The notes beneath the pieces are model-generated. The model did not search any database. It had not been told where the DNA came from and saw nothing but the letters and a program-made list of their open reading frames with translations. Position numbers and translations under genes: made by a program. A stretch of DNA of 64,000 nucleotides. It comes from Sedimentisphaerales bacterium (lineage in GTDB: Bacteria > Planctomycetota > Phycisphaerae > Sedimentisphaerales > SM23-30). This document shows positions 12,430 through 58,658 of the stretch, one piece after another. The stretch spans positions 160,001 through 224,000 of the forward strand of contig CAXXFK010000020.1 of the NCBI GenBank assembly GCA_963663965.2, given 5' to 3'. The number at the start of each line of letters is the position of its first letter. The first letter of the stretch is position 1.

Positions 12430-12437
12430 GAAAAATT

Positions 12438-12543: not shown

Positions 12544-12555
12544 CTAATAAGCCGG

Positions 12556-13077
12556 TCAGGCCTTATTGTGGACTTGCGGGGCCATCACCATCATCAGTCG
12601 CCTCCCCATGCGTTTGGCCGGTTGTTCGATCTTGCCGATATCGCTTAATTGTTCTGCCAGGGTCTTGAAAGTATCCTCCGCCAAATCCAGATGCATCATT
12701 TCGCGACCGCGAAACATCATGGTAAATTGCACTTTGTTCCCTTTGGTCAGGAACTGGCGCGCCTGTTTCATCTTGAAATCGCGGTCATGCGTATCGGTTT
12801 TTGGACGCAAACGCACTTCTTTCAAGCTGACAATATGTTGTTTGACCTTGGCCTTATGATCCTTTTTCTTCTGATCATATTTCCATTTACCATAGTCCAT
12901 CAGTCGACAGACCGGCGGATCGCTGTTGGGCGAAACCTCCACCAGATCCATACCTACTTCACGAGCTATGTTTAATGCTTCGATCGTTTTGACTATACCG
13001 ACCTGTTTGTTTTCATGATCAATCAGGCGTACCGCCGGTACGCGTACCCGTTCGTTAATGCGCAAATCTTTTGTTAT
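12556..13077 (-). CDS. infC: Translation initiation factor IF-3, likely AUA start
   Basis: RINERVR, DLVEVSPNSDPPVCRLMDYGK, KEVRLRP; AGGAG RBS 7 nt before an in-frame ATA at 13077. Confidence 0.95.
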   Translation of the reverse strand: MTKDLRINERVRVPAVRLIDHENKQVGIVKTIEALNIAREVGMDLVEVSPNSDPPVCRLMDYGKWKYDQKKKDHKAKVKQHIVSLKEVRLRPKTDTHDRDFKMKQARQFLTKGNKVQFTMMFRGREMMHLDLAEDTFKTLAEQLSDIGKIEQPAKRMGRRLMMVMAPQVHNKA

Positions 13078-13136
13078 GGTTTTTCTCCTGAAAAGAGTCT
13101 AACTATTTTAAAAATAACCAGCTACGTACTGGTCTA

Positions 13137-15095
13137 CTAATCGGCATTCATTAATTCCAGCTTGCGCTCGCCGGCATCTGCCACAGCCCGGTTAATAAAT
13201 TCATCCACTTTCATCTGGAGTTGACGCTCTGAACCGCGTACCCGAACTGTTACAGAATCCTGTTCGGCCTCTTTTGGGCCGACCACCAACATGTATGGGA
13301 GCTTCATTTCATGCCCACGTTTGATTTTGGCATTTATCTTATCATCGGCAGCATCGATCGAAGTCCTTAATCCAGCTTGTTTAATCCTCTGGAAAACCTG
13401 AAATCCAAATTCATTGGTTTTTTCACTGATCGGCATCACCCGGGCCTGTTCCGGCGCGAGCCAGAGCGGGAAATTGCCGGCGAAATGCTCGATCAGTATC
13501 CCGAAGAATCGCTCAATACTGCCATAAATCACGCGGTGAATCATGGCCGGGCGTTTTTCGGTGTTATCCTTGGCCACATAACTCAGATCAAATCGTTCCG
13601 GCATGGAGAAATCGAGCTGGATCGTACCGGTCTGCCAGGTTCGGCCCAGGCAATCACGGACGTGAACATCGATTTTCGGGCCATAAAAAGCGCCGTCACC
13701 CGGATTGATCTTAAACTCAACCCCCTGCGATTTAAGCGCGGTCTCTAATGCTGAGGTGGCCTTGTCCCACATCTCATCCGAACCGATACTTTTGGCCGGC
13801 CGGGTGGATAATTCCATCTTGCAGTCGGTCAGCCCAAACACCTGATACGCGTCCCAGATCAGCTTCATAACGCCAACGACTTCATCTTCAATCTGGTCCG
13901 GCAGGCAATAGATATGGGCATCATCCTGCACAAACTGGCGCACCCGCATGAGGCCATGCAAAACACCGCTGGCTTCGTGACGATGAACCAGTCCCAGTTC
14001 GGCCACCCGGATTGGAAACTCGCGATAGGAATGCGGTCGTGATTTAAATACCAGACAGGCGCCCGGACAGTTCATCGGCTTGACCGCGTAATCCACTTCG
14101 TCAATCTGGGTAAAATACATATTTTCACGGTAATTATCCCAGTGGCCCGATTGATGCCAGAGCCGCTCATTGAGGATAATCGGGGTACGAATCTGCTTAT
14201 ATTCCGCTTTGTCATGCAGTTCGTGCCAGTATTTCATCAGTTCGTTCCAGACGACCATGCCATTGGCATGCAGAAACGGGAATCCGGGTCCCTCATCCTG
14301 GAAACTGAACAAATCCATCTGACGGCCAATCAGGCGATGATCGCGCTTTTTGGCTTCTTCCAGCATATGCAGATACTGTTTCAGCTCTTTCCGATCGGCA
14401 AAGGCGGTCCCATAGACGCGCTGAAGCATTTTTTCGCTGGCATCGCCATGGAAATAGGCGCCCGCCACACTCATCACCTTGAAATCACCGATCTGGCCGG
14501 TACGGCAGATATGCGGCCCCATACAGAGATCTTCAAACCGGCCGGCCGCCGGTTCGCCCGTGACATAAAAACTGATACAATTTCCTTTGGCGCGTTTAGC
14601 ATTTTCCAGCTTGTAACGATTGCCTTCCGCTTGCAGTTTGGGCATCGCATCGTCCAACGACATTTCATAGCGGACAAATGGGCGGTCCTCCTGCACGATA
14701 CGGCGCATTTCAACTTCAATCGCTTCGAAATCATCCGGGGTAATCGGTCGATCCAGATCGATATCGTAATAGAATCCATTTTCAACCGTCGGGCCATAAA
14801 CCAGTCTGGCATCAGGAAACAGGTGGCAAATTGCTTCGGCCATGACATGGGCGCAACTATGCCGGATCAGATTCCGCGCGGTGTCCGGGTCGCTTTTGGC
14901 AGTGACGATCTCCAACGCAGTGTCTCGATCAATCATCCGCTGCATATCGGTTAACTGACCATCGAGCCGTACCCCCAAGGCGGCTTTGGCCAGACCGGGA
15001 CTGATCTGTTCGGCCACCTGCAAGGCAGTGACCGGACTGTCGAATTCTAATACTTTACCATCCAGAAGCGTTACTTTAATCATTTCGGCATCCAT
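13137..15095 (-). CDS. thrS: Threonyl-tRNA synthetase
   Basis: TGS domain, HSCAH editing motif, KPMNCP, RVRQFVQDDAH, GAFYGPKID, IHRVIYGSIERF. Confidence 0.98.
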   Translation of the reverse strand: MDAEMIKVTLLDGKVLEFDSPVTALQVAEQISPGLAKAALGVRLDGQLTDMQRMIDRDTALEIVTAKSDPDTARNLIRHSCAHVMAEAICHLFPDARLVYGPTVENGFYYDIDLDRPITPDDFEAIEVEMRRIVQEDRPFVRYEMSLDDAMPKLQAEGNRYKLENAKRAKGNCISFYVTGEPAAGRFEDLCMGPHICRTGQIGDFKVMSVAGAYFHGDASEKMLQRVYGTAFADRKELKQYLHMLEEAKKRDHRLIGRQMDLFSFQDEGPGFPFLHANGMVVWNELMKYWHELHDKAEYKQIRTPIILNERLWHQSGHWDNYRENMYFTQIDEVDYAVKPMNCPGACLVFKSRPHSYREFPIRVAELGLVHRHEASGVLHGLMRVRQFVQDDAHIYCLPDQIEDEVVGVMKLIWDAYQVFGLTDCKMELSTRPAKSIGSDEMWDKATSALETALKSQGVEFKINPGDGAFYGPKIDVHVRDCLGRTWQTGTIQLDFSMPERFDLSYVAKDNTEKRPAMIHRVIYGSIERFFGILIEHFAGNFPLWLAPEQARVMPISEKTNEFGFQVFQRIKQAGLRTSIDAADDKINAKIKRGHEMKLPYMLVVGPKEAEQDSVTVRVRGSERQLQMKVDEFINRAVADAGERKLELMNAD

Positions 15096-20527: not shown

Positions 20528-21580
20528 TTATTTCGGCCGCGCGTAAATAACTTTCGAGGCGCCCGACAGGGTATAAAACTTCTGCCCCCACATGCGTTGT
20601 TTGATCGTCTCGACAACATGCAGATTACTGACATGTCCGTCCAGATACACATAGTTGGCATTACCGCCCAGATCGGCGCCCAACTGCCCCTTATAATTAG
20701 TCGGCGGATGATGCCGGCCAACGGCATTCAATGGATGGGCGTTGACTCCCGTAATCAAATCCCCCAACGTATCGAGCTGATCGACCGGGACAATGCCAAG
20801 GTCAACCTGTTGATCCATCCCACACGTAAAATAACCGCCCGAATCGCTGTAGATCTGATTGATCGCGGTACTGCCCAGGCTGGTGAATGGCGTAATCGGA
20901 CGATGGCTTTTGACCAGATAAGAACTGCTCGAGAGTTCGGAGATCGCTTTCCAGTTCTTATTGAAATCCGCAGCCAGAATGACATTCGACGGCATTCTGA
21001 CCATCGAACTGCGCGCCAGCACATTCACGCGCGGACCGCCAAAGGCGGATTGCGCGCTGAACTTGTTTCGAGGCACCAACGCGGCATTGGCGCCATACCC
21101 AATACGGGGCGCCTGGCGATCTTCCACCTGGGCATTGGCGTAACTGGTTCGAGTTATGCCATTCTGATCGTACATTTCATCTTCCCAGTAGGTGTCTTTT
21201 GCCGGCCCCGGATTCGTGCGCGGCGCTCCCCCATTGCGCATGCCGGGACATTCGAACGCATCGGGATCGACCTGGCCGCCGGAGAACATAAAATACGACC
21301 AGTGCAGGTATCCGCCCGGATGGTTCAGATCGTTGTTATTGACATTCCCGCCGGCATCCAGATATTGATAAGACGGCGGCAAGGTGTCCTGATATTCGGT
21401 GAGATAGCCGGCCACGGCCTGTCCCACACTTTTCAGATTGGCCATGCACTTTACCGATTTGGCCGATTCGCGCGCTTTGCCCAGCGCCGGCATCAAAATA
21501 CTGATCAGCAATGCGATGATCGAAATGACTACGAGCAATTCGATCAAAGTGAATCCTTTCACACGAATAAGTTTCTTCAT
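20528..21580 (-). CDS. Prepilin-type N-terminal cleavage/methylation protein (DUF1559-like, H-X9-DG C-terminus)
   Basis: KGFTLIELLVVISIIALLISILMPALGKARESAK; RH...ANYVYLDGHV. Confidence 0.92.
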   Translation of the reverse strand: MKKLIRVKGFTLIELLVVISIIALLISILMPALGKARESAKSVKCMANLKSVGQAVAGYLTEYQDTLPPSYQYLDAGGNVNNNDLNHPGGYLHWSYFMFSGGQVDPDAFECPGMRNGGAPRTNPGPAKDTYWEDEMYDQNGITRTSYANAQVEDRQAPRIGYGANAALVPRNKFSAQSAFGGPRVNVLARSSMVRMPSNVILAADFNKNWKAISELSSSSYLVKSHRPITPFTSLGSTAINQIYSDSGGYFTCGMDQQVDLGIVPVDQLDTLGDLITGVNAHPLNAVGRHHPPTNYKGQLGADLGGNANYVYLDGHVSNLHVVETIKQRMWGQKFYTLSGASKVIYARPK

Positions 21581-28811: not shown

Positions 28812-30554
28812 TTATGATTCCTGAACGATTTGTTTGAGTAACTCCAAACCCTTGGCCGTCAAACGATACTTCTGATTGCGACTGCGAGGTTTATCAGGAA
28901 CAGTCATCTCGATGAGTTTTTCCCTTAAAGCCGGTCTGATATGATTATCTCTAAATGTTTGCTGATGTTTCATGCCTACTAGCTCTTGAAGCTCCTTCGC
29001 AGACATTTCGCCATCCAATAAGCCTCGAAGGAGTGCAAATATCAAAGAATTTAACTTAGCCGGTGACGGGGTTGGCAACTTAGCCGGTTGGGCCTCACCT
29101 TGTCTCCCACTATGGGCCCTTTTGGGCTTATCATGGGCCCCCACATGGGCCTCTTTTTCTTCGTCATGAGCCTTATTATAGGACTTTGGCTCGGATTGCC
29201 CATTTAACTTAGCCGGTAACTTAGCCGGTAACTTAGCCGGTAACTGGGTCGGTTCGTCCGCAAACATCGCCCGCACCAGATCCGAAGCCATATCGACTTC
29301 AACATCCAGTTCCGGAATGAAAAATTCAAAGGCCTTACGGGATCGGTCGTTCCGATAGGTTGGTTCCGAATGACCAAGCGCCTGCCATTCTTTGCTCATC
29401 ATTCGAAAACCGGTTCCAGCCTGTTCGCACATGACAATCCGCCGCATGGCCGCGGCGATTCCCGGGTTACGGACCTCTTTTTCACCGGGTTCCAACAATC
29501 GGGCGTCGTCACCGAAAACATCACCCGGATTCCAGAATTCGATACCATCTCGATAAAATTTAATGACTGCCTTGCGTGAATGGTCACCGTAGTCCTGATG
29601 GATCAGCAGGTTCATGGCCGCCTCGCGAAAAACTCGAAAACCGGGCGGATCGTCGCGCCGGCCTAACGTAACCGGATCAATATCCCGAAATGGTTTTGGC
29701 ATAAAAAACATATACTTGGCCACTAATTGCTGCCAGGACCGAATAATATTATCTTCACTGACAATCCGGTCGATCCAGCGAGTCTCTGGTATTTCATCCT
29801 GTGTTCCATAGCCCAAAAATTGGACATCGAGAGTTGGGCGGGGCATAAGCTGGTGTACCGCCAACGATGAGCCAAACAACATAACCGCACCGCGCGTGGG
29901 TATTAGACAGTTCCCGTCACGAATTAAGTAGCCCCAATGATAAAGAAAATCTTCATCAGACTCATCCGTATCGATACCCGCATTGGCCTGTTCGAATCGA
30001 TTGCGATACCAGCGCAAGCTGCCCGGATGAAACGCCTCTTCATACAATACCCGCTCAAATGGCTGGCCATCCCAGCGATCTTCCGTCGCGTCCCGCAGGA
30101 GTCGTTCAATATCCTGGGGCTGGGCCCGGTAATCTCCGCCGCCCTTGCGCAAAAAGGTTCGTCGGATATCACCATCCAGATAAACAGGTTTGCGAGTGCG
30201 AACATTTTCATTGATTTTGAAAATTAAGATAATTTTGCCGGAAACAACTATTCGTTCTTCGCTAACTGTAATGTCGTGATTGACTTTCTGACCGGCATGA
30301 AGAACAGACAGGAAATCATTCTGGACCTTATCGGGCTGCTCGACCCCCACGATTTCAAAATCTGACAGATCTGCTCCGCGCTCGTTTTTGTTCTGATGTT
30401 GACGTATACCAAAAATAAGAATACCGCCATGGGTATTGGCAAACGCAGAAATCGTTTCGAAAGCGGAACGAGGAACCGCACCTTGCGCTTCCTTGAACTC
30501 AACATCGTTCCATTCTCCGATTTTCAGCAACTGTTTTAGTTCGTCAACATTCAT
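28812..30554 (-). CDS. Schlafen/AlbA_2 + HATPase_c_4 (RecG C-terminal-like) + HTH protein
   Basis: GEWNDVEFKEA...ISAFANTHGGILIFG; REAAMNLLIHQDY; RNP...CEQAGTG; C-terminal PDKPRSRNQKYRLT. Confidence 0.8.
   Translation of the reverse strand: MNVDELKQLLKIGEWNDVEFKEAQGAVPRSAFETISAFANTHGGILIFGIRQHQNKNERGADLSDFEIVGVEQPDKVQNDFLSVLHAGQKVNHDITVSEERIVVSGKIILIFKINENVRTRKPVYLDGDIRRTFLRKGGGDYRAQPQDIERLLRDATEDRWDGQPFERVLYEEAFHPGSLRWYRNRFEQANAGIDTDESDEDFLYHWGYLIRDGNCLIPTRGAVMLFGSSLAVHQLMPRPTLDVQFLGYGTQDEIPETRWIDRIVSEDNIIRSWQQLVAKYMFFMPKPFRDIDPVTLGRRDDPPGFRVFREAAMNLLIHQDYGDHSRKAVIKFYRDGIEFWNPGDVFGDDARLLEPGEKEVRNPGIAAAMRRIVMCEQAGTGFRMMSKEWQALGHSEPTYRNDRSRKAFEFFIPELDVEVDMASDLVRAMFADEPTQLPAKLPAKLPAKLNGQSEPKSYNKAHDEEKEAHVGAHDKPKRAHSGRQGEAQPAKLPTPSPAKLNSLIFALLRGLLDGEMSAKELQELVGMKHQQTFRDNHIRPALREKLIEMTVPDKPRSRNQKYRLTAKGLELLKQIVQES
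29205..29245. repeat. 12-bp coding tandem repeat (TAACTTAGCCGG x3.4; PAKL units), extra copies at 29052 and 29077
   Basis: Direct reading of the sequence. Confidence 0.9.
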
Positions 30555-30683
30555 TTCTATTCTGGAACCTGAGCCGGCAGTGCCGGAACCAAACAGGGTC
30601 ATAGGAATATCAGGCAATACGACATTGTTTTTTGCCATTTTGCACAAGATTTTACTCGTAAGAGACTAAGTCATCTTAAGAAT

Positions 30684-33081: not shown

Positions 33082-36000
33082 ATGACGCAAAACCAGTCAC
33101 AAGCTTACAACGCGTTACAAAACCTGCGGTTACGGTTGCTGGATTTAACGGCACGAAACCAGTTGTTAAACTTTCGCCATACCAGAATGGGAAGCTTGCG
33201 GATTATCGACGAATTGCCGGATCAGTTGGCAGACACACTTCTTTCCGATACCGAAATGCGATTTTTGCCGGTACCGGAACCAACCCGGGATGAACTGGTA
33301 CAGGCGGAGTATATTAAGATTGAAGCGGACAGCGGTTTGGAAATTCGCCTGAAAAAGGATCCGACCGCGGAGGAATGGGCCAATTATCTGGGCCTTTCGA
33401 CCTCTTATGAAATGCCAGTGACCGAAACTGACACTGCCCAGGCGAAGCATACCGACAAAGCCATTCAGACCCTGCTTTACCCTTTTGAGTTGGAAGCCCG
33501 CCTCAAGAACCTGATGCAAAACTCCGAATCCGCCATCCAGGAGATGGGCGCCAATATCCTTTACCTCTCCTTTGGATTTCTGGAATGGGTCGACCAGGGC
33601 CAGGAAGATATCCGGATTGCACCTCTATTCCTGCTGCCAGTTCGTCTGCATAAAGGCCGGCTGAATCCCAAAACCAAAACTTACGAATACACCTTAAGCT
33701 ATTCCGGCGAAGATATCCTTCCCAATCTATCTTTGCGCGAAAAGCTTCGTATCGACTTTGCCCTGGCATTGCCGGATTTTGAGGAAAATATCACACCGGA
33801 AGCTTATTTTCGGGCCGTCCAGGAGCTCATCACAAAGAATCAACCGCGCTGGCAGGTGCGCCGGTATATCACCCTGTCACTGCTGAATTTCAGCAAGCTG
33901 ATGATGTACCTCGATCTGGATCCCGGCCGGTGGCCCGCCGAGAAAAACATCATTGATCATACGATTATTACCGAATTCCTCAATGGCTACCAACCAGATG
34001 ACAACACTTTGGAGGAAAACCCGGCTACCCACCACTTCGGTGAAGAATATCCCATCGACGAAATGGACGCCATTCATGATCGCTATCCACTGATAGACGA
34101 TGCCGACAGTTCGCAGCATAGCGCCCTGATCGACGCGATGGATGGCAAGAACCTGATCATTGAAGGTCCGCCCGGAACCGGAAAATCGCAAACCATTACC
34201 AACCTGATCGCAGCCGCCATGGCCAATGGCAAACGCGTGTTATTTGTCGCCGAAAAGCTCGCCGCGCTCGAGGTGGTGCGCCGCCGGCTCGATGCGGCCG
34301 GTCTGGGTGAATTCTGCCTGGAACTGCACAGCCATAAATCGCAAAAACGCAAAGTGCTGGATGAAATTGAAGTTCGGCTCAGTAAACACAGTCAGTATCG
34401 CAAGCCTGCCAGGATCAATTCAGAAATCAAACGCTGCGAAGAACTCAAGGCTCAGTTAAAACACTATGTCGAGGCCATCCATCAACCCTGGAAAGAAACC
34501 GGCCAGACCATCCATGCCATCTTCATGGCGGCCACGCGCTATCGCGAGGCCCTCGGCATCAATCCCGAAACCCTGCATCCCGCCGGTCACCATGGCGACA
34601 GTCTGAACGCGTCAACCCTTCAACAGGCCGAAGACCAGGTGGACACCTTCGCCCGGGTATTTGCCGCCGTAGTGGAACAACTGGCCGAAAACGGTACATT
34701 ACAGAACCATCCCTGGCATGGTGTTCAAAATGCCAATTTACAGGTTTATGACCTCGAACGGGTCCTGGCCTCCCTGTCGCAATGGCAAAATTCCCTGAAA
34801 TACCTTAACCAGTTCCGAACAGAACAGGCCGATACCCTCCAAACGGAACAACAAGAGATTGCCGAAACTCTGGATGGGTTTGAAAAATTTCTAAATGATC
34901 TGGATCATGTGCCCGCTCTCCAAGGTGATGAACAACTCGATTGCCTGCCGAATCTGCAGGGTGAAACACTGGATGCCGCCATCACAGGCAGACAACTCTT
35001 CGAAACAATTCAAGCCCTGTATGCATTGCTGCTGGAAAAGGTGAGCCCGGATGTACTGGGCGACTTATCGAAAGTGGAACACTATCGAACCGGTATCGAC
35101 CGGCTCAGTCAATTGACCCATCCTGAGATCGAATTAAAACATCTGTTCGAATCCCTTGAGCGTCTGAAGCAGATGCAGGGCCAAATAGCTCAATGGAAAG
35201 AACTCATCCCGGAAATCGAAAACAAGCTGGGAGCAGAAGCACGGGGATTCATTTCACTGACCACCGAAGGCCTGGAAGAATTCAAAGCGCTTGTCGATCT
35301 GCTGGGCGAACTGAAAATTTCTCACCTGAAGCTGCGTGATCCATTGTTCGATAACGAGGAACTGGATGAGATTCTGCCGGAGATGGACAAGGCCTTGAAA
35401 CGGCTGGCCACTTTACGGGACGATTTACAGCCGTATTACCGGCTGGACCTGCTGGGTAGCAGCGATGAACTGGTTCGTCTGAAAGCCACCCTGGATGCCG
35501 GTGGTATTTTCCGCTGGTTGAAAGGCAGCTGGCGCGGCGCCCGCCAGCAATTGCTGGACCTGGCTGCGGGCCCACGAGTGAAATTTTCGGCCATGCGCTC
35601 ATTAATCTCCAAAGCCGTGGACTATCTGGACCGCAAACAAAAGATCGAATCAAATCGCCGTTATGCCGGGTTGTTGGCCGACCATTTCAAAGGCATGAAA
35701 ACCGATATAGATACCCTGAACAGCTTGCGTGACTGGTATAAAAAGGTACGCCGGCACTACGGCATAGGATTCGGCAAAAAAGTCGCATTGGGAACGGCCC
35801 TGATCAATCTGCCGCTGGAACCCGCCCGCAATATTCGAGCGCTGTCTGAACAGGAAGTCCCGCTCAAAATTGGTAATTTCTTACGCGACCTGACCGGGTT
35901 GAAGTCAACCTTTAAACCTTATCCGGCCCTGCAAAATGATTCATTACCCCTGACTGGCGAAAATGGCATCATTGCCGGCCTGTCTGCGGCTCTTCAGGAG

Positions 36001-38526
36001 GCACTCGGGCTTTGTCAGCCACTATTGTCAGACAATTCCCTGACTATCGCACAACTGGCCGAACGGATCGAATCATTAGGTCAGTTGCACGACGCCGTGC
36101 GCGAATGGGAGAAACTGGATTACGACAACCGATTTTTCCAAGGCAGACTGGGATTAAAAACCGGAATTCATGCAGATAACCAGGCGGCCCTGTCGGCCCT
36201 GGATCACACGCTGACGCTGGCAACAATTATAGAACGTGACATAACCAGCGGCTGTATCCGAAACTTTCTTTACCAACATCCAGTCGTTCAGAGCTTCGAT
36301 ATATTAAAAACCATGGCATCTCAACTGCGAACCGCCCTGTCTGAACAGACTGCCGGCCGGGACCAGTTCACCCAGTTGATGGATCTGGACCTTGCGGCCT
36401 GGATGGTTCATTCCAGTGACCATCTGGATAAACTGATCGCCAGAAACGACCACGCGCTTCGTCACGATAAATACTTAAGCAACTGGCTCGACTACCTTCG
36501 GGTGCGCGCCGCAATCGTCGCCGCCGGCTTGGAAAACCTGGCCGCCATGCTCGAACGTGGCGAACTGAACCTGACCCGGATTCAAGAGGCCCACCGAGCC
36601 GGTTATTACGACTTGCTGGCCAGAGAGATCCTGTTAAGTCAGCCGGAACTGGCCGGTTTTTCCGGACAGTCCCACGAAGCGATCCAGGCCCAGTTCTGTA
36701 AATGCGATAATCGTCTCAAAACGCTCCAGTGTGAGCGTATCGCCTGGCAGATCGATCAGGTCGAAATTCCCGAAGGGGTGCGCGGCGCGCGTGTGAGTGA
36801 ACATACCGACAGATATCTTCTGGAACATGAATGCAGCAAGAAAACCCGGCATATCCCGATCCGGCAACTACTGAAACGGGCCGGCAATGCGCTGGTCGCC
36901 CTCAAACCCTGTTTTATGATGGGCCCCATGTCCGTCGCCCAGTATCTGGAGCCGGGCAAAAACCGGTTTGACCTGGTCATCATGGATGAGGCCTCACAAA
37001 TTAAACCCCAGGATGCGCTCGGGGCCATCGCGCGCGGTTCGCAGCTGGTGGTCGTGGGCGATCCCAAACAGCTGCCGCCCACCAACTTTTTCGACCGGAT
37101 CCTTGTGGATGATATCGAAGATCCCAGCGCGCTGGAAGAATCGGAGAGCATCCTGGACGCCACCTGGCCCATGTTCCCGGCCAGAAGGCGGCTACGCTGG
37201 CACTACCGGTCTCGCCACGAACAGTTAATCGCGTTTTCCAATTATTCGTTCTACGGCGGCGACCTGGTCCTCTTTCCGTCGCCCTTTCAATCCGCGGAAA
37301 ACTACGGCGTGCAATATACCCGGCTGCTCCGTGGCTGCTTTGTCAACCGGCGTAATCTGGAAGAAGCCAAAACCATCGCCCAGACCGTTCGGGAGCACAT
37401 CACCCAGAATCCGGATTTGTCACTGGGCGTGGTGGCCATGAGCGCCGAACAGCGGTTGCTGATCGAACGCACCATCGAAACCCTGGCCAAAGAAGATGAG
37501 ATCTTCCGGGACACGCTCGAGCAGGATGCCCTTAAATTAGAGCCCCTGTTTATCAAGAACCTTGAAAACGTCCAGGGTGATGAACGGGATGTGATCTTTA
37601 TTTCCATGACCTACGGGCCCAAAGAGCCCGGCGGCAAAGTCTATCAACGGTTTGGCCCGATCAATACCGACGTTGGCTGGCGTCGCTTGAATGTACTCTT
37701 CACGCGTTCCCGCCAGCGCATGCACATTTTCAGTTCCATGGACTCCCAAGATATCATCGCTGACAGGACCGCCAAACGGGGTGTCAAGGCGTTACGCGAT
37801 TTTCTCAGTTACTGCGAAACGGGCGTCCTGCACCGTACTGAAACAGAATCGCAGCGTGCCCCGGACAGCGATTTTGAAATCGCGGTGATGGCCGCTCTTA
37901 ACGAAGAGGGATTCGCATGTGTCCCCCAGGTGGGAGTAGCCGGTTTCTATATCGATGTCGCCGTGGTCGATCCCGGCAATCCCGGCCGATACCTGATGGG
38001 CATCGAATGCGACGGCGCTTCTTATCATTCGGCTAAATCCGTACGGGATCGTGACCGGCTCAAACAGATGGTACTGGAAAGACTGGGCTGGCGTATCCAC
38101 CGCATCTGGTCGACCGACTGGTTCAAAAATCCCCAGGCCCAACTGCAACCTCTGATTCGCGAACTGAATAAACTGAAATCCCAACCGGTCATCAGTGAGC
38201 CGGAAGCAGAAGCACCCCAGACAACCCAGCCGAGGATAGGCGACCATATATTTACGGCAACCGATCTGGAATCGATGCTCATCGAGTTTGACAACGAGGT
38301 AATTCGTAAAGCCCGGCCCGAGACCCCCCAGTATCAACGGCTGTTGCGGCCGGCCATGCTTGAGGCGTTTATGGAATACCGGCCCAGTACCCAGTCGGAA
38401 TACCTCGAAACCATGCCGCAATATCTCAGGCAGGCGACCGATACCGGCGAATTGGCATTCCTGGAAAAAGTACTGGAAATTATCAATATCAATATCGAAA
38501 ACACCCAGTCCGAAAAATCAGCCTGA
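33082..38526 (+). CDS. DUF4011 - SF1 helicase - Vsr/MTES_1575-like nuclease (Hhe-like putative anti-phage protein)
   Basis: LLDLTARNQLLNF (DUF4011), GPPGTGKSQT, DEASQ, HYRSR, ENVQGDERD, RRLNVLFTRSR, GIECDG...DRDR...GWRIHRIWSTDW. Confidence 0.88.
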   Translation: MTQNQSQAYNALQNLRLRLLDLTARNQLLNFRHTRMGSLRIIDELPDQLADTLLSDTEMRFLPVPEPTRDELVQAEYIKIEADSGLEIRLKKDPTAEEWANYLGLSTSYEMPVTETDTAQAKHTDKAIQTLLYPFELEARLKNLMQNSESAIQEMGANILYLSFGFLEWVDQGQEDIRIAPLFLLPVRLHKGRLNPKTKTYEYTLSYSGEDILPNLSLREKLRIDFALALPDFEENITPEAYFRAVQELITKNQPRWQVRRYITLSLLNFSKLMMYLDLDPGRWPAEKNIIDHTIITEFLNGYQPDDNTLEENPATHHFGEEYPIDEMDAIHDRYPLIDDADSSQHSALIDAMDGKNLIIEGPPGTGKSQTITNLIAAAMANGKRVLFVAEKLAALEVVRRRLDAAGLGEFCLELHSHKSQKRKVLDEIEVRLSKHSQYRKPARINSEIKRCEELKAQLKHYVEAIHQPWKETGQTIHAIFMAATRYREALGINPETLHPAGHHGDSLNASTLQQAEDQVDTFARVFAAVVEQLAENGTLQNHPWHGVQNANLQVYDLERVLASLSQWQNSLKYLNQFRTEQADTLQTEQQEIAETLDGFEKFLNDLDHVPALQGDEQLDCLPNLQGETLDAAITGRQLFETIQALYALLLEKVSPDVLGDLSKVEHYRTGIDRLSQLTHPEIELKHLFESLERLKQMQGQIAQWKELIPEIENKLGAEARGFISLTTEGLEEFKALVDLLGELKISHLKLRDPLFDNEELDEILPEMDKALKRLATLRDDLQPYYRLDLLGSSDELVRLKATLDAGGIFRWLKGSWRGARQQLLDLAAGPRVKFSAMRSLISKAVDYLDRKQKIESNRRYAGLLADHFKGMKTDIDTLNSLRDWYKKVRRHYGIGFGKKVALGTALINLPLEPARNIRALSEQEVPLKIGNFLRDLTGLKSTFKPYPALQNDSLPLTGENGIIAGLSAALQEALGLCQPLLSDNSLTIAQLAERIESLGQLHDAVREWEKLDYDNRFFQGRLGLKTGIHADNQAALSALDHTLTLATIIERDITSGCIRNFLYQHPVVQSFDILKTMASQLRTALSEQTAGRDQFTQLMDLDLAAWMVHSSDHLDKLIARNDHALRHDKYLSNWLDYLRVRAAIVAAGLENLAAMLERGELNLTRIQEAHRAGYYDLLAREILLSQPELAGFSGQSHEAIQAQFCKCDNRLKTLQCERIAWQIDQVEIPEGVRGARVSEHTDRYLLEHECSKKTRHIPIRQLLKRAGNALVALKPCFMMGPMSVAQYLEPGKNRFDLVIMDEASQIKPQDALGAIARGSQLVVVGDPKQLPPTNFFDRILVDDIEDPSALEESESILDATWPMFPARRRLRWHYRSRHEQLIAFSNYSFYGGDLVLFPSPFQSAENYGVQYTRLLRGCFVNRRNLEEAKTIAQTVREHITQNPDLSLGVVAMSAEQRLLIERTIETLAKEDEIFRDTLEQDALKLEPLFIKNLENVQGDERDVIFISMTYGPKEPGGKVYQRFGPINTDVGWRRLNVLFTRSRQRMHIFSSMDSQDIIADRTAKRGVKALRDFLSYCETGVLHRTETESQRAPDSDFEIAVMAALNEEGFACVPQVGVAGFYIDVAVVDPGNPGRYLMGIECDGASYHSAKSVRDRDRLKQMVLERLGWRIHRIWSTDWFKNPQAQLQPLIRELNKLKSQPVISEPEAEAPQTTQPRIGDHIFTATDLESMLIEFDNEVIRKARPETPQYQRLLRPAMLEAFMEYRPSTQSEYLETMPQYLRQATDTGELAFLEKVLEIININIENTQSEKSA

Positions 38527-51249: not shown

Positions 51250-54200
51250 CTACAACTCCATCTCCGGATTCAACTCCACCTCCACCATAAACGGTTGACT
51301 CTCGGCGCGGTTGTCCGGCTGATAATATTCATAGACCCGGGCCGGTTCGATGCGGGCCTTCACCGGGTATTTGGCCTTGAGCTGATAGTCAAATGTAAAG
51401 GGCTTGTCTGCCGGCAGCGCGCGCAGATACAGGATACACTGCGTCCCGGTTATTTCATATCGGGCCAGTTGACCGGCGGCCTGCAACAACTGGAACCCGG
51501 CCGGATCCACTCCGAATCCCGGCGGAATACCCAGATCGACAATCGCCATCGGCACCACACCCCCGGACAGATTACGCACCGTCACCGTACAGCCCAGCCG
51601 GTCATCCACTCCCAGCCGGGTCCGGTCATAACTCACCGCGATATCCAGCTGCCGGTCCGGCCCGGGCTCAACCAGAGTCCCCGGCTCACGATCCGGCACC
51701 CAGTACCCGCCGCTCAACCGATACGGAATACTGCCGCCGCGGCTGCTGATACGGATCGCGTTTTCGCCCGGCCGCAGGATCTCTGACAAATTGAGCGCCT
51801 GCACCAGGTCACTGTTGCGCGCGTCAATCACCGCCTGCCCGGCCGGCCGGCCATTCACCTGCACCTCCAGTTGAATGGTCTGATCCGAGCCCAGCGCCTG
51901 ACGCATCCCCATCATCAGCGCCTTCATGGTCAGTATCGTACTCTGGGTGGAATGCCAGGAGCCATAGCTATCCTTCTGCCGGGTCAGCCAGGTCAGCGCC
52001 TTGCGGACAATCTCACCGTGGCGGTTGCCCTTCATCAGGGCCATCGTCCCCAGCGCCGTTGTCTCGATATCCAGGCATATGCCGCGCGAATACATCATCC
52101 CGCAACCATCGCCGCTCAGGAGGGCCAGCTGACCCTCCTGCTCAAACCGATTCGCCAGCACATCCGCCAGCTGCCTGCCGGCAGTGTCATTGGGATTAGC
52201 CGCCAACAGCGCGTTGGCCGCCAGCGCCATCACATACGGCGACCGGACCTCACCGAGATGCTCCCTCAGATACGCCATCGCGCGCGCCACGCCCTCATGC
52301 TCGATACCCGCTTCAGCCAGGTTCCAGGCAATATAGGCGGTCGGGGCGACCGGGCCCATCCGCTGGACATCCACCAGGTGCACATCCCGGTCATCCGGCC
52401 AGGATCCATCCTCCCGCTGCTTGCCAAACAGCCAGGCGGCGGTGCGGTCGATGATCCGCTTGTCCACCGAATGCACCCTGGCCATATCCGAAAATTCCAT
52501 CACGCCATAAGCGCTCAGCATAATATTGGCCGGTGGATTGCCGAACCAGTCAAAGCCGCCGCCGGCCACCTCAAAGGTCAGCAGCCGCTGATAACCCGCG
52601 GCAATGAACTTGCGGGCCTTTGCCTCGATCTCCGGCGTCACCTGTTTGGTTTCCAGCATATATTGCAGAACCATGATATTCGGATAAGTAATCGAGCTGG
52701 TCTGCTCGAAGCAGCCATACGGCATCTGGAAAATAGCGTCCAGGCCCTCCATCACCTCGCTGAAGGTCGATGGATACAACGTCAGCTGCAACTGCTGCGA
52801 ATGGGCAATCGCCTCTTCCGCCAGGGTCAGCGTATGCCGGTTATCGCCCGTCAGCGAATCGCTCACCAGCCAGTTTACCTCGCGGCCGTCCGGCTTTACG
52901 CGCACCTCGCGCCGGATCGCGTCGCTCATCGCCTGGCCCTGCGCCAGTACCATCAGCGGATGCGTGCCCACCTCAACCGCCTTGATCCGGAACGAGACCG
53001 ACAACACCTCATTCGGCTGGAGTGTCAGCTGCTTGCGCGATTGATCCAACACCTCGCACCACGAATCCACCTGCAAAGCCAGCTCCACTGTCTGCTCACG
53101 ATTCAAATAGTTATAACAGACCACCGGCAGGGTAATCTCATCGTTGCGCGTCAAAGCCACCGGCAAATCCAGGTCCACAAAGAAATCCTGGAACACCTTC
53201 AAACCCAGTTCGCAACTGCCCAGTTGCCCACCGGCCGAAACCGCGTCGATATTCATCCGCCAGGTAGTAATTGAATCGGCCGCCGTCAACTCGATCCGGG
53301 CCCGGCCGCCATCATCCGTGATCACCTGCGGCTGCCACAACAGTGTCTCAGGAAAATAATGGCGTACACGGGGGGGGGCGCTACTCTGACCTGTCATAGA
53401 CTCTGAAAACAATGAAGGATTATCATTTCTGACCATCTCGATGGCACTATCGGCCGCTTGCATGGCACTTGCCGCGACCATTTCTTTCGCCCTGATCCTT
53501 GATCTACCTAAAGCCGGCATAAATAATGATGAAACAAATAAAGATAAAAATAAAATAAGTACAATTTTCAAAATCAAATATCGAATTTGTATGATTGCAC
53601 TGAAAAACAGAATCAGCATACCGATGATTGTCCCTATAATCAAAAGTCTGAAAAAGGTATTCTTAAATATCTTCTCCATCGAACCTGACTTTTTCTGGTT
53701 ATCATATCGATTAGCATAAGAAATTGAATACATCGGTTTATCAGGTTTGAGAATCTTCATAATCTCTTGATATCTGGGTTGATTTAAAATTTCACTAAAA
53801 CCGGGATTATCGATATATTTTTGAATATTTTCCAGAATATGTGGATCAATATATTCTTTGAGCTCCTTTAAAATCTGAGCGTTTCGCAATGAATCCACTG
53901 CATTTTTTTCCCGAATCGAAAACAGCGCCATCGCCAGCGTCTGATAGCGTTCATCACCACCCAGCAGTTGCGCCGGCGATACTGCAAACTTGATCTGATA
54001 GGCCGGCTGCAGCATCTCCTCATCGATCGCGAAAAACTGCTCCATCAATCCCGGCCGGTTCTCGCCCACGTAAAAGACTGCCTCATCCACCGCGCACACC
54101 CCCAGCGCCGCCGGGACCGATTGCCGGTACCGGTCTGTCACCTGCAAATCAATTGTCACCGGATCACCCGGCCGGTAAACCGGCTTGTCAGGCCGCGCGT

Positions 54201-56058
54201 CGATACGCAACTCATTCACCGGCTGCACCTGGACAATCCGCGTATCCAGTACCGTGCGGCCCTCGTGATTGATTTGATAGGCGTTCACCCGCAGTGTACC
54301 CGACAGCGACGCCGGCAGGTCAATCACCAGATCGCCCCGCCCCGCTTCCACCTCCAGCGTCCGGGCCAGCATCGTCTGGCGGTCCTTGATAATATCGACA
54401 AACATCCGCTCCGTCGTATTGGCTGTGATCACACGGATCGCCAGCGGCTCGCCGCCGCGATAGACCGCCTTGCCGGTCCGCAGAATAAAACGCCGTTCAT
54501 CCCCCACCTGCTCCAGGCTCTTTTCATAGATCCCGTTATTGCCCTGTGTATCCACCGCCGTAATACGCAAGGGCGTCTCTTCATCGCCACTTATCGTCAG
54601 CAGCGCCACCCCGGTAGTATCGGTGCGGACCTGTTTACCATTGACATTCAGCGAACAGAGCGCCGGCCGCCCATCGGGATAAGCCGTCAGAATATAGACC
54701 CGGTTCTCCAGTCCCGGCACCATCGCGCCGCTTTCCGGAATCACATGCACATCAATCGCCTGACTCGCCACTACCACTGGTTCCCGGGTCTGCTGCGTGT
54801 GCCCGGCGGTATCGGTCACACTCACCCCCAGTTCAATCACCGCGTTGCCGCCCGTACGCAAACTGCCGGCCAGCCGGTCCGGGATAATATGCTCCAATTG
54901 AAACTTCCCCTGCGCATCCGTCTGCCCCGTCACGCGAAACAGTTCCAACTCCCCGGCCAGATAGGTGTTCGCCACCACCTCCACCTGTCCAGCGGCCACC
55001 GGCTTGCCAAAGAAATAATCCGCCTGCACCGTCACCTGCATCACTTCACCGGCCAGATAATAGGGTCGATGCGACTCCGCCATCACCTTGAATTTGGGCA
55101 GTACATACTGTTTCACCGTCACGCTCTTTTCCGAAGTCACCCCGCCGGCATCAATCACAATCTTATACAACCCGGTATTGACCAGCGTCGCCAGTTCAAA
55201 ATCCGCCGCCGCGATCCCGAATTCCGAAGTTTGCTCCTCCGCGCGAAACACCTTGTTGCCCTTGGGATCCTCGACTTCAAAAACCACCGGCTGCCGGTCG
55301 GCCGGTTTTTGCGACACGGTATGCAGCGCCAGCGCCCGCATATGGATGGTCTGGCCCGGCTGATACAGCGGCTTGTCCGTCGTCACATAGATCCGCTGCG
55401 GCCGCTTGACCGTAATCGCCTGGCTCATCGAATCGCTGTCCCACCCCACCGGAATCACATTCAGGGTATAGTCTCCGCCCGCCATCGCCGGAATCACAAT
55501 CGGATCATCCAGACAGCCATCCGGCCCGGTGCGAAACCGGCCCAGTTCCACTTTTTTATTCGAGTCCTTACTCACCAGTTCGATCCGGACCGCCTTATCC
55601 TCCAGCGGTTTGCCCGTCTGGTAATCCTCCAGCAGAACCCGCAAAGCCGCCTCACTGCCGGAATACAGGCTGTCCTGCCCCAGCACTGTCATATTCACCA
55701 ACTTGGGCGACCAGACATACGCGCGATAGCCATAATACCCCAGCGCCGCCAGATAGAATAGCGCGGCGATCTTCAACACCTTCATAAAGATCTTCGGCAC
55801 CCGGGAAGGGCCCCTGGGTTCCTGATCCGGCTCCGCGGAGCCCGGATCGATCTGACCCATAATGGATTCGGTCACATCCCCCTCTTGATAATACTGACCC
55901 GCCGCCAGCAGCCGCTCGCGCAAGGTACGATTCTCCAGGTAAAACCGCCCGCAGTCCTCACACGCCTCCACATGCAATTCCATCAGCGACCGGGTCCGCT
56001 CATCCAGCAGACCTTCCAGGTACGCGATCATTTTATCCTGACATTCCTGACATTTCAT
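51250..56058 (-). CDS. zf-HC2 anti-sigma domain fused to alpha-2-macroglobulin with thioester motif
   Basis: AAGGAG + ATG 56058; MKCQEC...HVEACEDC (HxxxCxxC), TM helix, TDKPLYQPG and PDKPVYRPG MG domains, AVDEAV, RHYFPETLLW, MPYGCFEQ thioester, GSWHSTQST, VYEYYQP. Confidence 0.9.
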   Translation of the reverse strand: MKCQECQDKMIAYLEGLLDERTRSLMELHVEACEDCGRFYLENRTLRERLLAAGQYYQEGDVTESIMGQIDPGSAEPDQEPRGPSRVPKIFMKVLKIAALFYLAALGYYGYRAYVWSPKLVNMTVLGQDSLYSGSEAALRVLLEDYQTGKPLEDKAVRIELVSKDSNKKVELGRFRTGPDGCLDDPIVIPAMAGGDYTLNVIPVGWDSDSMSQAITVKRPQRIYVTTDKPLYQPGQTIHMRALALHTVSQKPADRQPVVFEVEDPKGNKVFRAEEQTSEFGIAAADFELATLVNTGLYKIVIDAGGVTSEKSVTVKQYVLPKFKVMAESHRPYYLAGEVMQVTVQADYFFGKPVAAGQVEVVANTYLAGELELFRVTGQTDAQGKFQLEHIIPDRLAGSLRTGGNAVIELGVSVTDTAGHTQQTREPVVVASQAIDVHVIPESGAMVPGLENRVYILTAYPDGRPALCSLNVNGKQVRTDTTGVALLTISGDEETPLRITAVDTQGNNGIYEKSLEQVGDERRFILRTGKAVYRGGEPLAIRVITANTTERMFVDIIKDRQTMLARTLEVEAGRGDLVIDLPASLSGTLRVNAYQINHEGRTVLDTRIVQVQPVNELRIDARPDKPVYRPGDPVTIDLQVTDRYRQSVPAALGVCAVDEAVFYVGENRPGLMEQFFAIDEEMLQPAYQIKFAVSPAQLLGGDERYQTLAMALFSIREKNAVDSLRNAQILKELKEYIDPHILENIQKYIDNPGFSEILNQPRYQEIMKILKPDKPMYSISYANRYDNQKKSGSMEKIFKNTFFRLLIIGTIIGMLILFFSAIIQIRYLILKIVLILFLSLFVSSLFMPALGRSRIRAKEMVAASAMQAADSAIEMVRNDNPSLFSESMTGQSSAPPRVRHYFPETLLWQPQVITDDGGRARIELTAADSITTWRMNIDAVSAGGQLGSCELGLKVFQDFFVDLDLPVALTRNDEITLPVVCYNYLNREQTVELALQVDSWCEVLDQSRKQLTLQPNEVLSVSFRIKAVEVGTHPLMVLAQGQAMSDAIRREVRVKPDGREVNWLVSDSLTGDNRHTLTLAEEAIAHSQQLQLTLYPSTFSEVMEGLDAIFQMPYGCFEQTSSITYPNIMVLQYMLETKQVTPEIEAKARKFIAAGYQRLLTFEVAGGGFDWFGNPPANIMLSAYGVMEFSDMARVHSVDKRIIDRTAAWLFGKQREDGSWPDDRDVHLVDVQRMGPVAPTAYIAWNLAEAGIEHEGVARAMAYLREHLGEVRSPYVMALAANALLAANPNDTAGRQLADVLANRFEQEGQLALLSGDGCGMMYSRGICLDIETTALGTMALMKGNRHGEIVRKALTWLTRQKDSYGSWHSTQSTILTMKALMMGMRQALGSDQTIQLEVQVNGRPAGQAVIDARNSDLVQALNLSEILRPGENAIRISSRGGSIPYRLSGGYWVPDREPGTLVEPGPDRQLDIAVSYDRTRLGVDDRLGCTVTVRNLSGGVVPMAIVDLGIPPGFGVDPAGFQLLQAAGQLARYEITGTQCILYLRALPADKPFTFDYQLKAKYPVKARIEPARVYEYYQPDNRAESQPFMVEVELNPEMEL

Positions 56059-56090: not shown

Positions 56091-56639
56091 TTATGGGTTG
56101 AGTGAATGGGCCAGCCGTTCGCGCAGCATCTGATAGGCGCGCGACAGCATCTTGGTCACCGTGCCGATCGGCATCTCCATCTGGGTCGCCACTTCGCGGC
56201 ACGTCAGACCGCTGAAATAGCGCATCATCACCAGGTTCCGATACGGCTCCGGCAGGCTCTCCAGCGCCTCTTCCAGTTCATAATCGCCCGCGGGCGACTG
56301 CGAACCGGGATGATTCGGTTGGGTTTTCATCCGGGACACCTCTTTGTGTTTCTTTTCCGTGCGAACGGTTTCCAGTACGACCAGGTAAGCGATCCCCAAC
56401 AGCCACGCGCCCAGCTTCTCCGGCTCCTTCAACTCATCCAGCCCGCGCCACGCTCGCAGAAAGGTCTCCTGCACAATATCGTCCGTATCATGGATATGGT
56501 GTTTACGCGCCAGCCAGGCCCGCACGATCGGCTGATAACGCCGGATCACTACCCGAAACGCCTCAGCCTGACCGCCCAGGCACCGCGCGATCGCCTCCCG
56601 GTCGGACAGGGCCGCCTGATTGTTGGTCTGTGTTTCCAA
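56091..56639 (-). CDS. ECF sigma-70 family RNA polymerase sigma factor
   Basis: DDIVQETFLRAW, AWLLGIA, GTVTKMLSRA; TTG start. Confidence 0.92.
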   Translation of the reverse strand: METQTNNQAALSDREAIARCLGGQAEAFRVVIRRYQPIVRAWLARKHHIHDTDDIVQETFLRAWRGLDELKEPEKLGAWLLGIAYLVVLETVRTEKKHKEVSRMKTQPNHPGSQSPAGDYELEEALESLPEPYRNLVMMRYFSGLTCREVATQMEMPIGTVTKMLSRAYQMLRERLAHSLNP

Positions 56640-56684: not shown

Positions 56685-57186
56685 ATTGAGTTTTGTATTT
56701 TTTCACAGGCGCCAATGCCCGGTCAACCTGGTTTTTCGCAACAGGAACGGATTGCTATTCACTTGTTTAACGATTAAAGGATACACCAGTGTTTCTTTCT
56801 ACCTGATTGTGAAAAAAATCAGCCGGATTGCGACAAAATATTATATTTTTTTGCATTTCTTCATTTCCACCCCATCCCCAACACCGCTCTAACCGCCGGT
56901 AAAAAATCAATTTAGCAACAAACACTCGACCTTTTACAGGTTTGTCAGGACAAATACCAGCTTCAGATATGCCTTGACACTATGCATAATAATGTGTTAT
57001 TACTGAATAATAGGTATGACCGAATTTGCATATTAGAGTATTTAATGAAAATCAGGCATTATATGTCTATATTTTCTTAATTTGGTAATAAAAATTCTGA
57101 GTCATGAAAGGAGTGAACATGTTGGTGGAATCAAGCTCTAAGGTTGTTTCGGTAGTTGTCTTTCTTTATGGTTAAATGTTTTCTAA

Positions 57187-58164
57187 ATGGCCAGGAATTC
57201 ACCCAAAATTCAAAGATTGCTAAAGCAAAATGCAACTACTAAGCGGAAATATGTTGTTAATTATGCCACGGATTTACCACATATTTTGGTTGAACTTGAG
57301 CCAGACCAGGATCCGAACAATCCTGACACCGTTGAGCGGTTATACTATTATTACAATGATTTATTAGTTGCTCATCGTGAAGGGGCCTATTCAATCGGTC
57401 AGTACCAAAACAGATATTTTTATCTGCATGACCGATTAGGCAGCGTCAGACAGATCATCGATTATTTAGGTAATGTGAAAAATCGTTATATTTATTCACC
57501 CTGGGGCAACCAGTTACTGGATGAATGTGAAACAACGATTGAAAACAATTATCTCTTTACCGGGTTATTTTATGACTGGGAAATTGATGCTTATGATGCC
57601 CGGGCAAGGGAATACTTCCCCTACCTGGCAAGATTTAATGGCTACGATCCTGTCCTTGGAAATTTCCAGGAACCACTTACCCTGCATCAGTATTTGTATT
57701 GTTTGAATGATCCAGTGAATATGATTGATTCAGATGGGAATATGGCATTCGTAGCAATGATGACTGGAACAGGCGGAGCAACAGCATTAGAATGCGCATT
57801 ATATGCTGGCGGTGCTACTTTAGCAGTTTATGTAACATACAAGTTGTTTGATGCAATTGATTTAAATAATACTGTCTTAGATTTAGTGATTGCTGCTGAT
57901 AATGCATTGGATAACATTAATGATGCTCTTATGGATACTGCTATTAATATAGCTGTTTGGGCAAAATCGCGTGATAGTAGTAAAAATGAACCACATGGTG
58001 ATGGTGGGAGATCACTAGAGAAAGCAAGAAAACAAATTGAAGAATTGGAAGAGCAACTTAAGGATGCAACTGGAAGAGAAGCAAAAAAAATTAAAAATAA
58101 AATCAAAAGGATATGGGACGATGCACAAAAAAAGAAAAAAGGAGAAACACACCATAAAAGATAA
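57187..58164 (+). CDS. Orphan Rhs core with C-terminal putative toxin domain
   Basis: YLHDRLGSVR, YSPWG, YLFTG, RAREYFPYLARF, HQYLYCLNDPVNMIDSDG; hydrophobic linker then a Lys-rich helical tip. Confidence 0.88.
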   Translation: MARNSPKIQRLLKQNATTKRKYVVNYATDLPHILVELEPDQDPNNPDTVERLYYYYNDLLVAHREGAYSIGQYQNRYFYLHDRLGSVRQIIDYLGNVKNRYIYSPWGNQLLDECETTIENNYLFTGLFYDWEIDAYDARAREYFPYLARFNGYDPVLGNFQEPLTLHQYLYCLNDPVNMIDSDGNMAFVAMMTGTGGATALECALYAGGATLAVYVTYKLFDAIDLNNTVLDLVIAADNALDNINDALMDTAINIAVWAKSRDSSKNEPHGDGGRSLEKARKQIEELEEQLKDATGREAKKIKNKIKRIWDDAQKKKKGETHHKR

Positions 58165-58178
58165 ATGAGGTATAAGAT

Positions 58179-58658
58179 ATGATAAGTAAAGTTATTATAA
58201 AACCACTTATAGGCATAGATAGTATTCATCTAGGGATGCAAAGAAATGTTGTAGAGACTGTATTAGGTGTTCCAGATTTGTTTGAGCAAAAAGCTTATGA
58301 TGAAGATGATAGCACAGAAGTGATATTGGAATACACAAGCTTTGGTATTGAATTGACGTTTTCGTCTACAGACAATTATCTTCTTGGAACAATAACGATA
58401 AAATCAGAGGAAGCAGAGCTTAATGGTCATAAAATAATCGGTTTGAGGGAAAACGAATTTTTGAATTTGTTATCTCATATCAATATTGGCCCAATTAAAT
58501 TGGAAGACGATTTTATTGATTTAGATTCGCGCGACTACACGTGTGATAGCCTGAGTATGTCCTTTTGGGTACATAACGGAATATTAACCTCAATAACATT
58601 ATATCCTAAATATGATGATACGGGGAATACTCCTATTTGGCCGAATATTATTAGATAA
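58179..58658 (+). CDS. Putative immunity protein
   Basis: Starts 14 bp after the Rhs stop, acidic, AT-rich; IKPLIGIDSIHLGM...VLGVP N-terminus. Confidence 0.7.
   Translation: MISKVIIKPLIGIDSIHLGMQRNVVETVLGVPDLFEQKAYDEDDSTEVILEYTSFGIELTFSSTDNYLLGTITIKSEEAELNGHKIIGLRENEFLNLLSHINIGPIKLEDDFIDLDSRDYTCDSLSMSFWVHNGILTSITLYPKYDDTGNTPIWPNIIR

Follow-up and report, generated by a model that had tools for sequence, protein, structure and literature searches.

We found, in a 64,000-nucleotide stretch of the genome of a Sedimentisphaerales bacterium (assembly GCA_963663965.2, contig CAXXFK010000020.1, positions 160,001 to 224,000; hereafter the window, meaning this whole stretch, in whose numbering its features are given), a gene that joins an N-terminal zinc anti-sigma domain to an entire thioester macroglobulin of the alpha-2-macroglobulin (A2M) superfamily and that lies directly downstream of a gene for a sigma factor of the extracytoplasmic function (ECF) type. 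We predict, at roughly even odds (a probability of about 0.5), that its product is a three-pass inner-membrane anti-sigma factor that uses the whole macroglobulin as its outside sensor and frees the sigma factor when a protease cleaves the bait. This prediction draws on the domain architecture of the fusion, on a pair of hydrophobic helices inserted into its bait slot and on the near-confinement of ECF pairing to those relatives that carry such membrane inserts.

The fusion gene (51250..56058, minus strand, as are all features of this locus) encodes 1602 aa in a frame that is open throughout, with Pfam matches to zf-HC2, MG2, MG3, A2M_BRD, A2M, TED_complement and A2M_recep in that order. The stop codon of the 182-aa ECF sigma factor gene (56091..56639; Pfam Sigma70_r2 and r4_2, TIGR02937 above cut-off) lies 33 nt ahead of its start. 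The anti-sigma domain, predicted to be cytoplasmic, spans aa 1-52 (55903..56058; C3, H29, C33, C36), is matched by zf-HC2 at aa 4-37 with 30.9 bits, above the cut-off, and is modelled by AlphaFold2 as three helices with a per-residue confidence (pLDDT) of 84-94; it is followed by the transmembrane (TM) helix TM1 (aa 90-113, 55720..55791; hydropathy 1.7, modelled helix 88-115). On these sequence grounds, namely the H-x3-C-x2-C bundle, the ECF adjacency and the TM helix, we assign the protein to the class I zinc anti-sigma factors. MG1 to the first half of MG6, with the linker, occupies aa 120-713 (53920..55701; Pfam, alignment to CD109 and model), the thioester motif CFEQ (C1116, 52702..52713) aligns with CGEQ of CD109, and R899 and F902 of the alpha'NT plug motif (53353..53370), which is kept in 118 of 119 relatives, align with the plug motif of CD109. 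The same protein is accordingly placed in the A2M/thioester superfamily by its domain order, its CxEQ motif and its plug R..F. Among proteins of solved structure the best matches are CD109 and A2M (E 1e-68 to 1e-61), a Foldseek search with the model returned CD109/C3 at a TM-score of about 0.55, and the closest database matches listed named Sedimentisphaerales and Phycisphaerae. An assignment to the type I bacterial A2Ms of the E. coli/Salmonella kind was rejected, given the zf-HC2 and TM helix at the N-terminus and a match to Salmonella A2M of just E 4e-12; H1227, which aligns to a CD109 His, was likewise rejected as a possible catalytic His for want of conservation in the family alignment.

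Between linker and plug the fusion departs from the wholly soluble bait region expected of the superfamily: two hydrophobic helices precede a 17-residue loop. The segment begins with a small helical subdomain (aa 714-783, 53710..53919), which keeps the register of its relatives in alignment and model, and continues into TMa (aa 805-823, 53590..53646; Kyte-Doolittle hydropathy peak 2.83), the end of a long helix (784-822). TMb (aa 828-846, 53521..53577; peak 2.66) is a degenerate pilin alpha1-N with R, Y and K at -1, +1 and +5 and Pro at +22 in the register of the family alignment, and runs on as an amphipathic, pilin alpha1-C-like helix (aa 847-879, 53422..53520; model, and 20 bits against a prepilin profile described below). 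The last element is a disordered loop (aa 880-896, 53371..53421), with the lowest conservation (14% among relatives), and this loop of about 17 residues is, from the model, likely the bait proper. The AlphaFold2 model of aa 1-1050 (54 sequences, mean pLDDT 83) gives the same order of zinc bundle, TM1, MG strands, helical subdomain, helix 784-822, turn, helix 828-879 and loop, with low confidence (pLDDT below 50) at 885-901; a single-sequence run on aa 487-1119 reached a pLDDT of 39, an ESM Atlas query with aa 700-900 returned no usable match, and a complex prediction of the hairpin (aa 776-882) with TM1 (aa 82-120) scored 0.00, which carries no weight either way. According to the sections of PMC9352918 that deal with the plug-in-channel trigger of A2M, the plug residues of human A2M are R732 and F735, which match R899 and F902, and in the scheme given there the insert falls between the linker and alpha'NT, the slot that also holds the C3 anaphylatoxin domain. 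A sequence-only reading of this DNA had taken the entire segment for the A2M bait, bearing two hydrophobic helices that re-enter the membrane. The helices and their return to the membrane hold, with hydrophobic helices recurring at this position across the family, and the segment does contain the bait slot, but it comprises the linker tail, an inserted domain and the bait rather than the bait alone. That description did not mention the zinc finger of the anti-sigma N-terminus or the ECF gene ahead.

We compared 120 listed proteins, of which 114 (including the query) could be anchored and six without anchors were dropped. At least two hydrophobic segments lie at the insert position in 98 of the 114, mostly 2 or 5-6, and none in 15 (an early anchor truncated the rows of P0006, P0047 and some soluble forms); all 98 keep CFEQ. 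The number of helices ranges from 2 to 6-8, and the two-helix form of the query stands amid relatives with 5-6. The split MG6 requires an even number, and counts of 5 probably reflect one missed helix. The records with membrane inserts span Planctomycetota, Verrucomicrobiota, Armatimonadota and Chloroflexota; in a phylogeny built from the C-terminal part those of Planctomycetota and Verrucomicrobiota form one clade (support 0.99), with the query among the 5-6-helix forms, and outside this clade membrane inserts occur in an Anaerolineae group and at an Armatimonadota locus. We thus regard the membrane insert as a feature of the family and not an oddity of this Sedimentisphaerales genome.

The association with sigma factors was scored with an ECF profile in 71 anchorable loci out of 90 (19 without anchors were dropped), limited to genes with at least 700 nt of upstream DNA. 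Among the membrane-insert genes 20 of 28 have an ECF gene directly upstream, vs 0 of 33 among the soluble-insert genes, 18 of these ECFs being confirmed by Pfam, and the zf-HC2 match at the N-terminus, present in 12 of 69, is restricted to membrane forms. A second sample of 20 regions, from 34 matching genomes of a 401-genome draw from the phylum, places an ECF ahead of 10/10 membrane forms (one of which repeats L045) vs 1/9 testable soluble forms. The partner ECFs are polyphyletic: 15 form one clade, those of L036, L045 and L093 are separate, and the query's joins a paralog (38% identity) encoded on contig C21 of the same genome. Since the partners belong to several lineages, the pairing arose, or was remade, several times. 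A conserved gene downstream of the macroglobulin was not found in the compared loci.

The upstream regions of the query ECF and of its C21 paralog, the closest, have GTCGCAA-N14/15-TCAC[AT]AT in common, which at 56806..56834 (GTCGCAA-N15-TCACAAT) constitutes a candidate autoregulatory promoter. The strict pattern, itself derived from these two sites, occurs at just those 2 places in the genome (0 for the reversed control); looser patterns were unspecific in the same genome. The paralogous pair (contig C21, 135743-137782) consists of an ECF and a zinc anti-sigma factor with an unrelated outer domain, and the ECF/anti-sigma module is in this way reused with different sensors. Upstream of the ECFs in the 15-member clade an AAC-N14-GCATA-type site was discerned by eye; in its exact form it was matched 6 times across 5 genomes, 5 of these being the source sites, which points to a very small regulon. 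The remaining copy, a second one in genome G301 (L109:3-1553), precedes a possible regulon member whose product is, from its motifs, probably a vWA-domain lipoprotein.

The last helix of the insert is supported as pilin-derived by several sequence features. The prepilin-type protein encoded at 20528-21580 of the window reads GFTLIE...ILMPALGKARESAK, and the query shares with such proteins the hydrophobic alpha1-N, the Pro+22 and the amphipathic alpha1-C, so that the likeness which the sequence-only reading had drawn to this protein, minus the GFTLIE site, is borne out. A profile built from the genome's 66 prepilin-type open reading frames (ORFs) scores at least 15 bits in 73 of the 120 listed proteins vs 16 of the genome's 6254 other ORFs, and by inspection those 16 are pilin-like or bear the same helix. 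The Pro+22 pattern is present in 74 of the 98 membrane-insert proteins and E+5 in 38; the -1 residue is often R, and G-1 together with E+5 occurs in 5. Matches to N_methyl, DUF1559 and TIGR02532 appear in membrane forms, and a literal internal G-FT[LV]IE cleavage motif in P0014, P0018 and P0067, the first of which passes the TIGR02532 and N_methyl cut-offs; the query itself matches neither of these two profiles. Several ECF-linked relatives have the hairpin without a pilin-like helix. The soluble branch carries in the same slot a GspG-like pseudopilin head. Pfam T2SSG recognizes it in 10 of the 12 inserts examined, 7 of them above the cut-off, and a GspG motif is present in 32 of 39 soluble inserts vs 0 of 32 membrane inserts.

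The query was rejected as a prepilin (class III signal), its cleavage motif being lost and its helix lying internally, not behind a short leader. Gly-1 is required for cleavage by prepilin peptidase. With R, Y and K in place of G, F and E at -1, +1 and +5, at aa 827 of 1602, the query is by the usual rule not a substrate of this enzyme, contrary to the earlier suggestion that the segment could mimic one.

Related modules occur elsewhere in the genome. A paralogous macroglobulin on contig C39 (L010:2263-3081) has a soluble insert of the GspG-head type, then a Gly/Met/Ala-rich loop, and no ECF ahead, an arrangement shared by soluble-insert loci such as L033, L050 and L081. A third macroglobulin gene (contig C31, about 10569-14830) is of the CGEQ type with a short soluble bait, appears over two reading frames and adjoins a prepilin-type gene. 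Proteins with an internal pilin alpha1-C helix and a DUF1559-like tail are encoded on contigs C10 (82394), C27 (48077), C12 (28382, 11476) and C28 (280322), and one of them has an anti-sigma-like N-terminus and an adjacent ECF.

We envisage the following sequence of events. With the N-terminus in the cytoplasm the anti-sigma domain would hold the ECF, and the even number of inserted helices would keep both halves of MG6 outside. A protease would cut the loop, or the basic helix ahead of it, upon which the plug may withdraw and the thioester domain may trap the protease in the manner of A2M and C3. As the hairpin ties the bait to the membrane, cleavage would free the hairpin's C-terminal end, and the hairpin itself would remain with the N-terminal chain. 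The part in the membrane around TM1 could then rearrange such that a site-2 protease cuts TM1 and releases the anti-sigma domain, and the freed ECF would transcribe its own two-gene unit, replacing the single-use trap; M50 (site-2) protease genes are present in the genome. The proposal that cleavage is coupled to transmembrane signalling, already raised from the sequence, thereby gains a concrete output in the ECF/anti-sigma pair, with the coupling of cleavage to release itself staying conjectural.

Several observations weigh against this reading. In ordinary class I anti-sigma factors a single TM helix carries the signal (82 ECF groups, PMC7826278), so that a hairpin is not required in principle. 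The cytoplasmic turn of the hairpin has just about 5 residues, and the topology derives from hydropathy and domain logic, with basic residues on both faces of the hairpin. An ECF is missing from 8 of the 28 membrane-insert loci, and the forms from Verrucomicrobia and Anaerolineae keep the helices and have no anti-sigma domain, which argues that the helices are useful without signalling. Conversely, the soluble-insert gene L157, whose ORF stops just before the thioester Cys, has an ECF-like match upstream. The loci are, moreover, related, so the ECF counts are inflated by kinship and do not represent independent trials.

The main competitor, which we consider possible though clearly the less probable, is that the hairpin and pilin-like helix serve as a second anchor or address, possibly at a type II secretion or type IV pilus platform, holding the bait near the surface, with the ECF freed independently by the single-helix route or another stress. 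It is favored by the persistence of the helices in the loci without an ECF, by the pilin-related contents of the slot in both branches (alpha1 helix in the membrane forms, GspG-like head in the soluble ones) and by a genome that encodes the 66 prepilin-type ORFs and, by Pfam search, a prepilin peptidase. However, it leaves unexplained the near-restriction of ECF pairing to forms with a membrane insert; in many ECF-linked forms the hairpin is present and a pilin-like helix is not, making the hairpin and not the pilin motif the constant element, and the same motif in unrelated proteins of the genome may represent a generic membrane-exit helix. A separate and very improbable reading would have the last helix act as a working internal prepilin site, at which prepilin peptidase cuts in the cytoplasmic turn, as furin does in C3, so that a thioester chain starting with a pilin helix could join or plug pseudopili. 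The literal sites in P0014, P0018 and P0067, the scores of P0014 and the frequencies of E+5 and of the Pro+22-type pattern speak for such an activity, and the residues at -1, +1 and +5 of the query and the rarity of G-1 with E+5 speak against it.

Two further readings concern the origin of the insert and turn on its composition. The low-GC, in-frame segment that the sequence-only reading had reported inside a GC-rich gene is confirmed: 53521-53580 contains 8 G+C, and a two-breakpoint fit of synonymous GC content at third codon positions (GC3) delimits aa 713-905 (53922-53344), the proposed cassette, with GC3 0.32 vs 0.73 and twice the log-likelihood difference (2dlnL) of 116, compared with 6-17 in 12 shuffles of a comparable gene. 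Among the 419 ORFs of at least 800 aa in the genome, a set that includes shadow ORFs, no other has so large a dip in GC3 within the gene. TTA accounts for 7/19 Leu codons inside the segment vs 0/139 outside, GC3 is 0.73 in TM1 of this gene, and across the membrane segments of 36 GC-rich genes in the genome it shifts by +0.01 on average; because of these three results the step is not an effect of hydrophobicity or amino acid content. Of 74 genes, 3 have strong steps at the insert borders; each is a membrane form (the query, L013 and L045; 2dlnL 117-128), which makes 3 of 35 membrane-insert genes, with weaker steps in L085, L104 and L046 and none in most relatives. In L013:6872-11917 and L045:6503-11836, from two other lineages, the sharp drop is limited to the membrane insert. 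Such steps at the same boundaries, together with the varying helix number and the two-helix form of the query among 5-6-helix relatives, could betray an exchangeable specificity cassette that is recombined between conserved flanks and alters what is sensed.

The genealogy of the insert makes this cassette reading doubtful, less probable than the anchor or address. Along its entire length the insert of the query keeps register with those of its relatives, at a mean identity of 13-21% vs 40-55% in the flanks, and the terminal branches of the insert are about 2-3 times longer than those of the flanks. Trees of 44 proteins share 11 of 13 supported splits between insert and N-flank with 0 conflicts (2 for insert vs C-flank and 8 for N-flank vs C-flank), and in close pairs the identity of the insert declines smoothly with that of the flanks, none of the 90 pairs shown being a swapped one. 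DNA and protein searches of the genome for a second copy, and hence for other bait-like cassettes, returned prepilin helices alone, and searches for repeats at the insert borders just short, chance-level pairs. Given the congruent tree, the gradual loss of identity and the lack of a donor copy or border repeat, we read the insert as vertically inherited and fast-evolving, shortened from 5-6 to 2 helices in the query, with swapping not shown; of the earlier description as exchangeable or fast-evolving the second half stands, and a foreign AT-rich cassette is not the essence of the element, given how few genes have the step. The AT-rich coding is best explained by local lineage history, that is, fast divergence and possibly short-range homologous replacement, and lies outside the mechanism; a replacement from an AT-richer close relative is possible and in the present data indistinguishable from drift.

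An assembly chimera or decayed region is the least credible of all readings. The abrupt change in composition and the thin coverage would suit it: contig depth is about 5, just one run covers the insert, with X2 and X3 lacking coverage of it, and the one contig that spans the gene without difference may be the source itself. Against it stand the occurrence of a colinear insert in roughly a hundred independent proteins, the open frame, the confident helical model and the agreement of that contig. At the 3' border of the insert lies a stretch of nine consecutive G (nine C in the coding strand; 53370-53378), the window's sole run of at least 8 and one of 37 runs of 9-11 in the genome, a possible slippage site with no indel among contigs.

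Among known systems, the animal proteins CD109, A2M, A2ML1 and C3/C4 share with the query the MG ring, the split MG6, the bait slot, the plug, CxEQ and the C-terminal receptor-binding domain. These metazoan proteins are secreted or lipid-anchored, and, unlike the query, they have neither membrane helices inside the bait slot nor an anti-sigma domain. The type I A2M of E. coli and Salmonella and MagD of P. aeruginosa resemble it as periplasmic, inner-membrane-tethered protease traps, but differ in a lipoprotein anchor, extra N-terminal domains and a short soluble bait (according to the available part of PMC12939704), and they are distant from it in sequence and have no sigma factor link. By analogy, the closest working counterpart is DdvA-DdvS of Myxococcus xanthus, with a cytoplasmic CHCC zinc three-helix bundle, a TM helix and a large proteolysis-related periplasmic domain, for which the portion of PMC11506125 consulted proposes RseP-type release. 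DdvA combines a TPR-CHAT protease-like domain with a single TM helix, whereas the ectodomain of the query is a protease inhibitor and its chain crosses the membrane three times, up to seven or more in the family. Type IV prepilins of the DUF1559 kind share the hydrophobic helix, Pro+22 and amphipathic continuation, and GspG shares the T2SSG head with the soluble cousins; in the query, by contrast, the helix is internal and its cleavage motif lost, and the membrane forms have no pilin head. We found no description of the fusion or of bait-slot membrane helices in the open-access literature, a search that did not extend to planctomycete ECF surveys, which may list the neighbourhood; the accessible parts of PMC12939704 and PMC8416519 mention neither, and 'macroglobulin' is absent from the part of the PMC7826278 supplement at hand.

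In nine genomes the codon at the thioester Cys position is an in-frame TGA beyond which the frame continues (L146:6031, L147:6622, L148, L149:5446, L150:6112, L154, L116, L122:705 and L125:2275), and 14 database proteins (within P0081-P0119), all soluble-insert forms, end exactly ahead of this position. A hairpin is found at a similar place downstream of the TGA in 6 stretches, 2 of them clearly better than shuffles. SelA is encoded in 5/5 TGA genomes and 4/5 Cys genomes and is thus not discriminating; the query gene has Cys, and SelA was not found in its genome. These TGA codons likely specify selenocysteine, making their products candidate seleno-ester macroglobulins, and a literature search on thioester selenocysteine in macroglobulins found nothing. 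Elsewhere in the window there are two defence-type genes, one for a large helicase with DUF4011 and MTES_1575 nuclease domains (33082-38526) and one for a Schlafen/AlbA_2-HATPase-Fic-like protein (28812-30647), and, divergent from the ECF gene, two low-GC ORFs with no Pfam match (57187-58658).

Tentatively, we would see in these proteins a widespread and undescribed class of protease receptors, in which a complement-like thioester protein is threaded through the membrane at its bait, its A2M/C3-type switch is read out as sigma factor release, the bait slot is made from pilin parts and, in some relatives, selenium replaces the thioester sulfur. The family of the query is nearer to the animal thioester proteins than to the bacterial A2Ms studied so far, and the position that C3 uses for its anaphylatoxin domain takes up whole foreign modules in bacteria. 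Passive trapping is what bacterial macroglobulins are known for; in the present case the trap is joined to a sigma factor inhibitor, and the segment that triggers it is stitched into the membrane. Should cleavage indeed free the sigma factor, the fusion would be a one-protein protease receptor that uses a complement-type switch for gene control.

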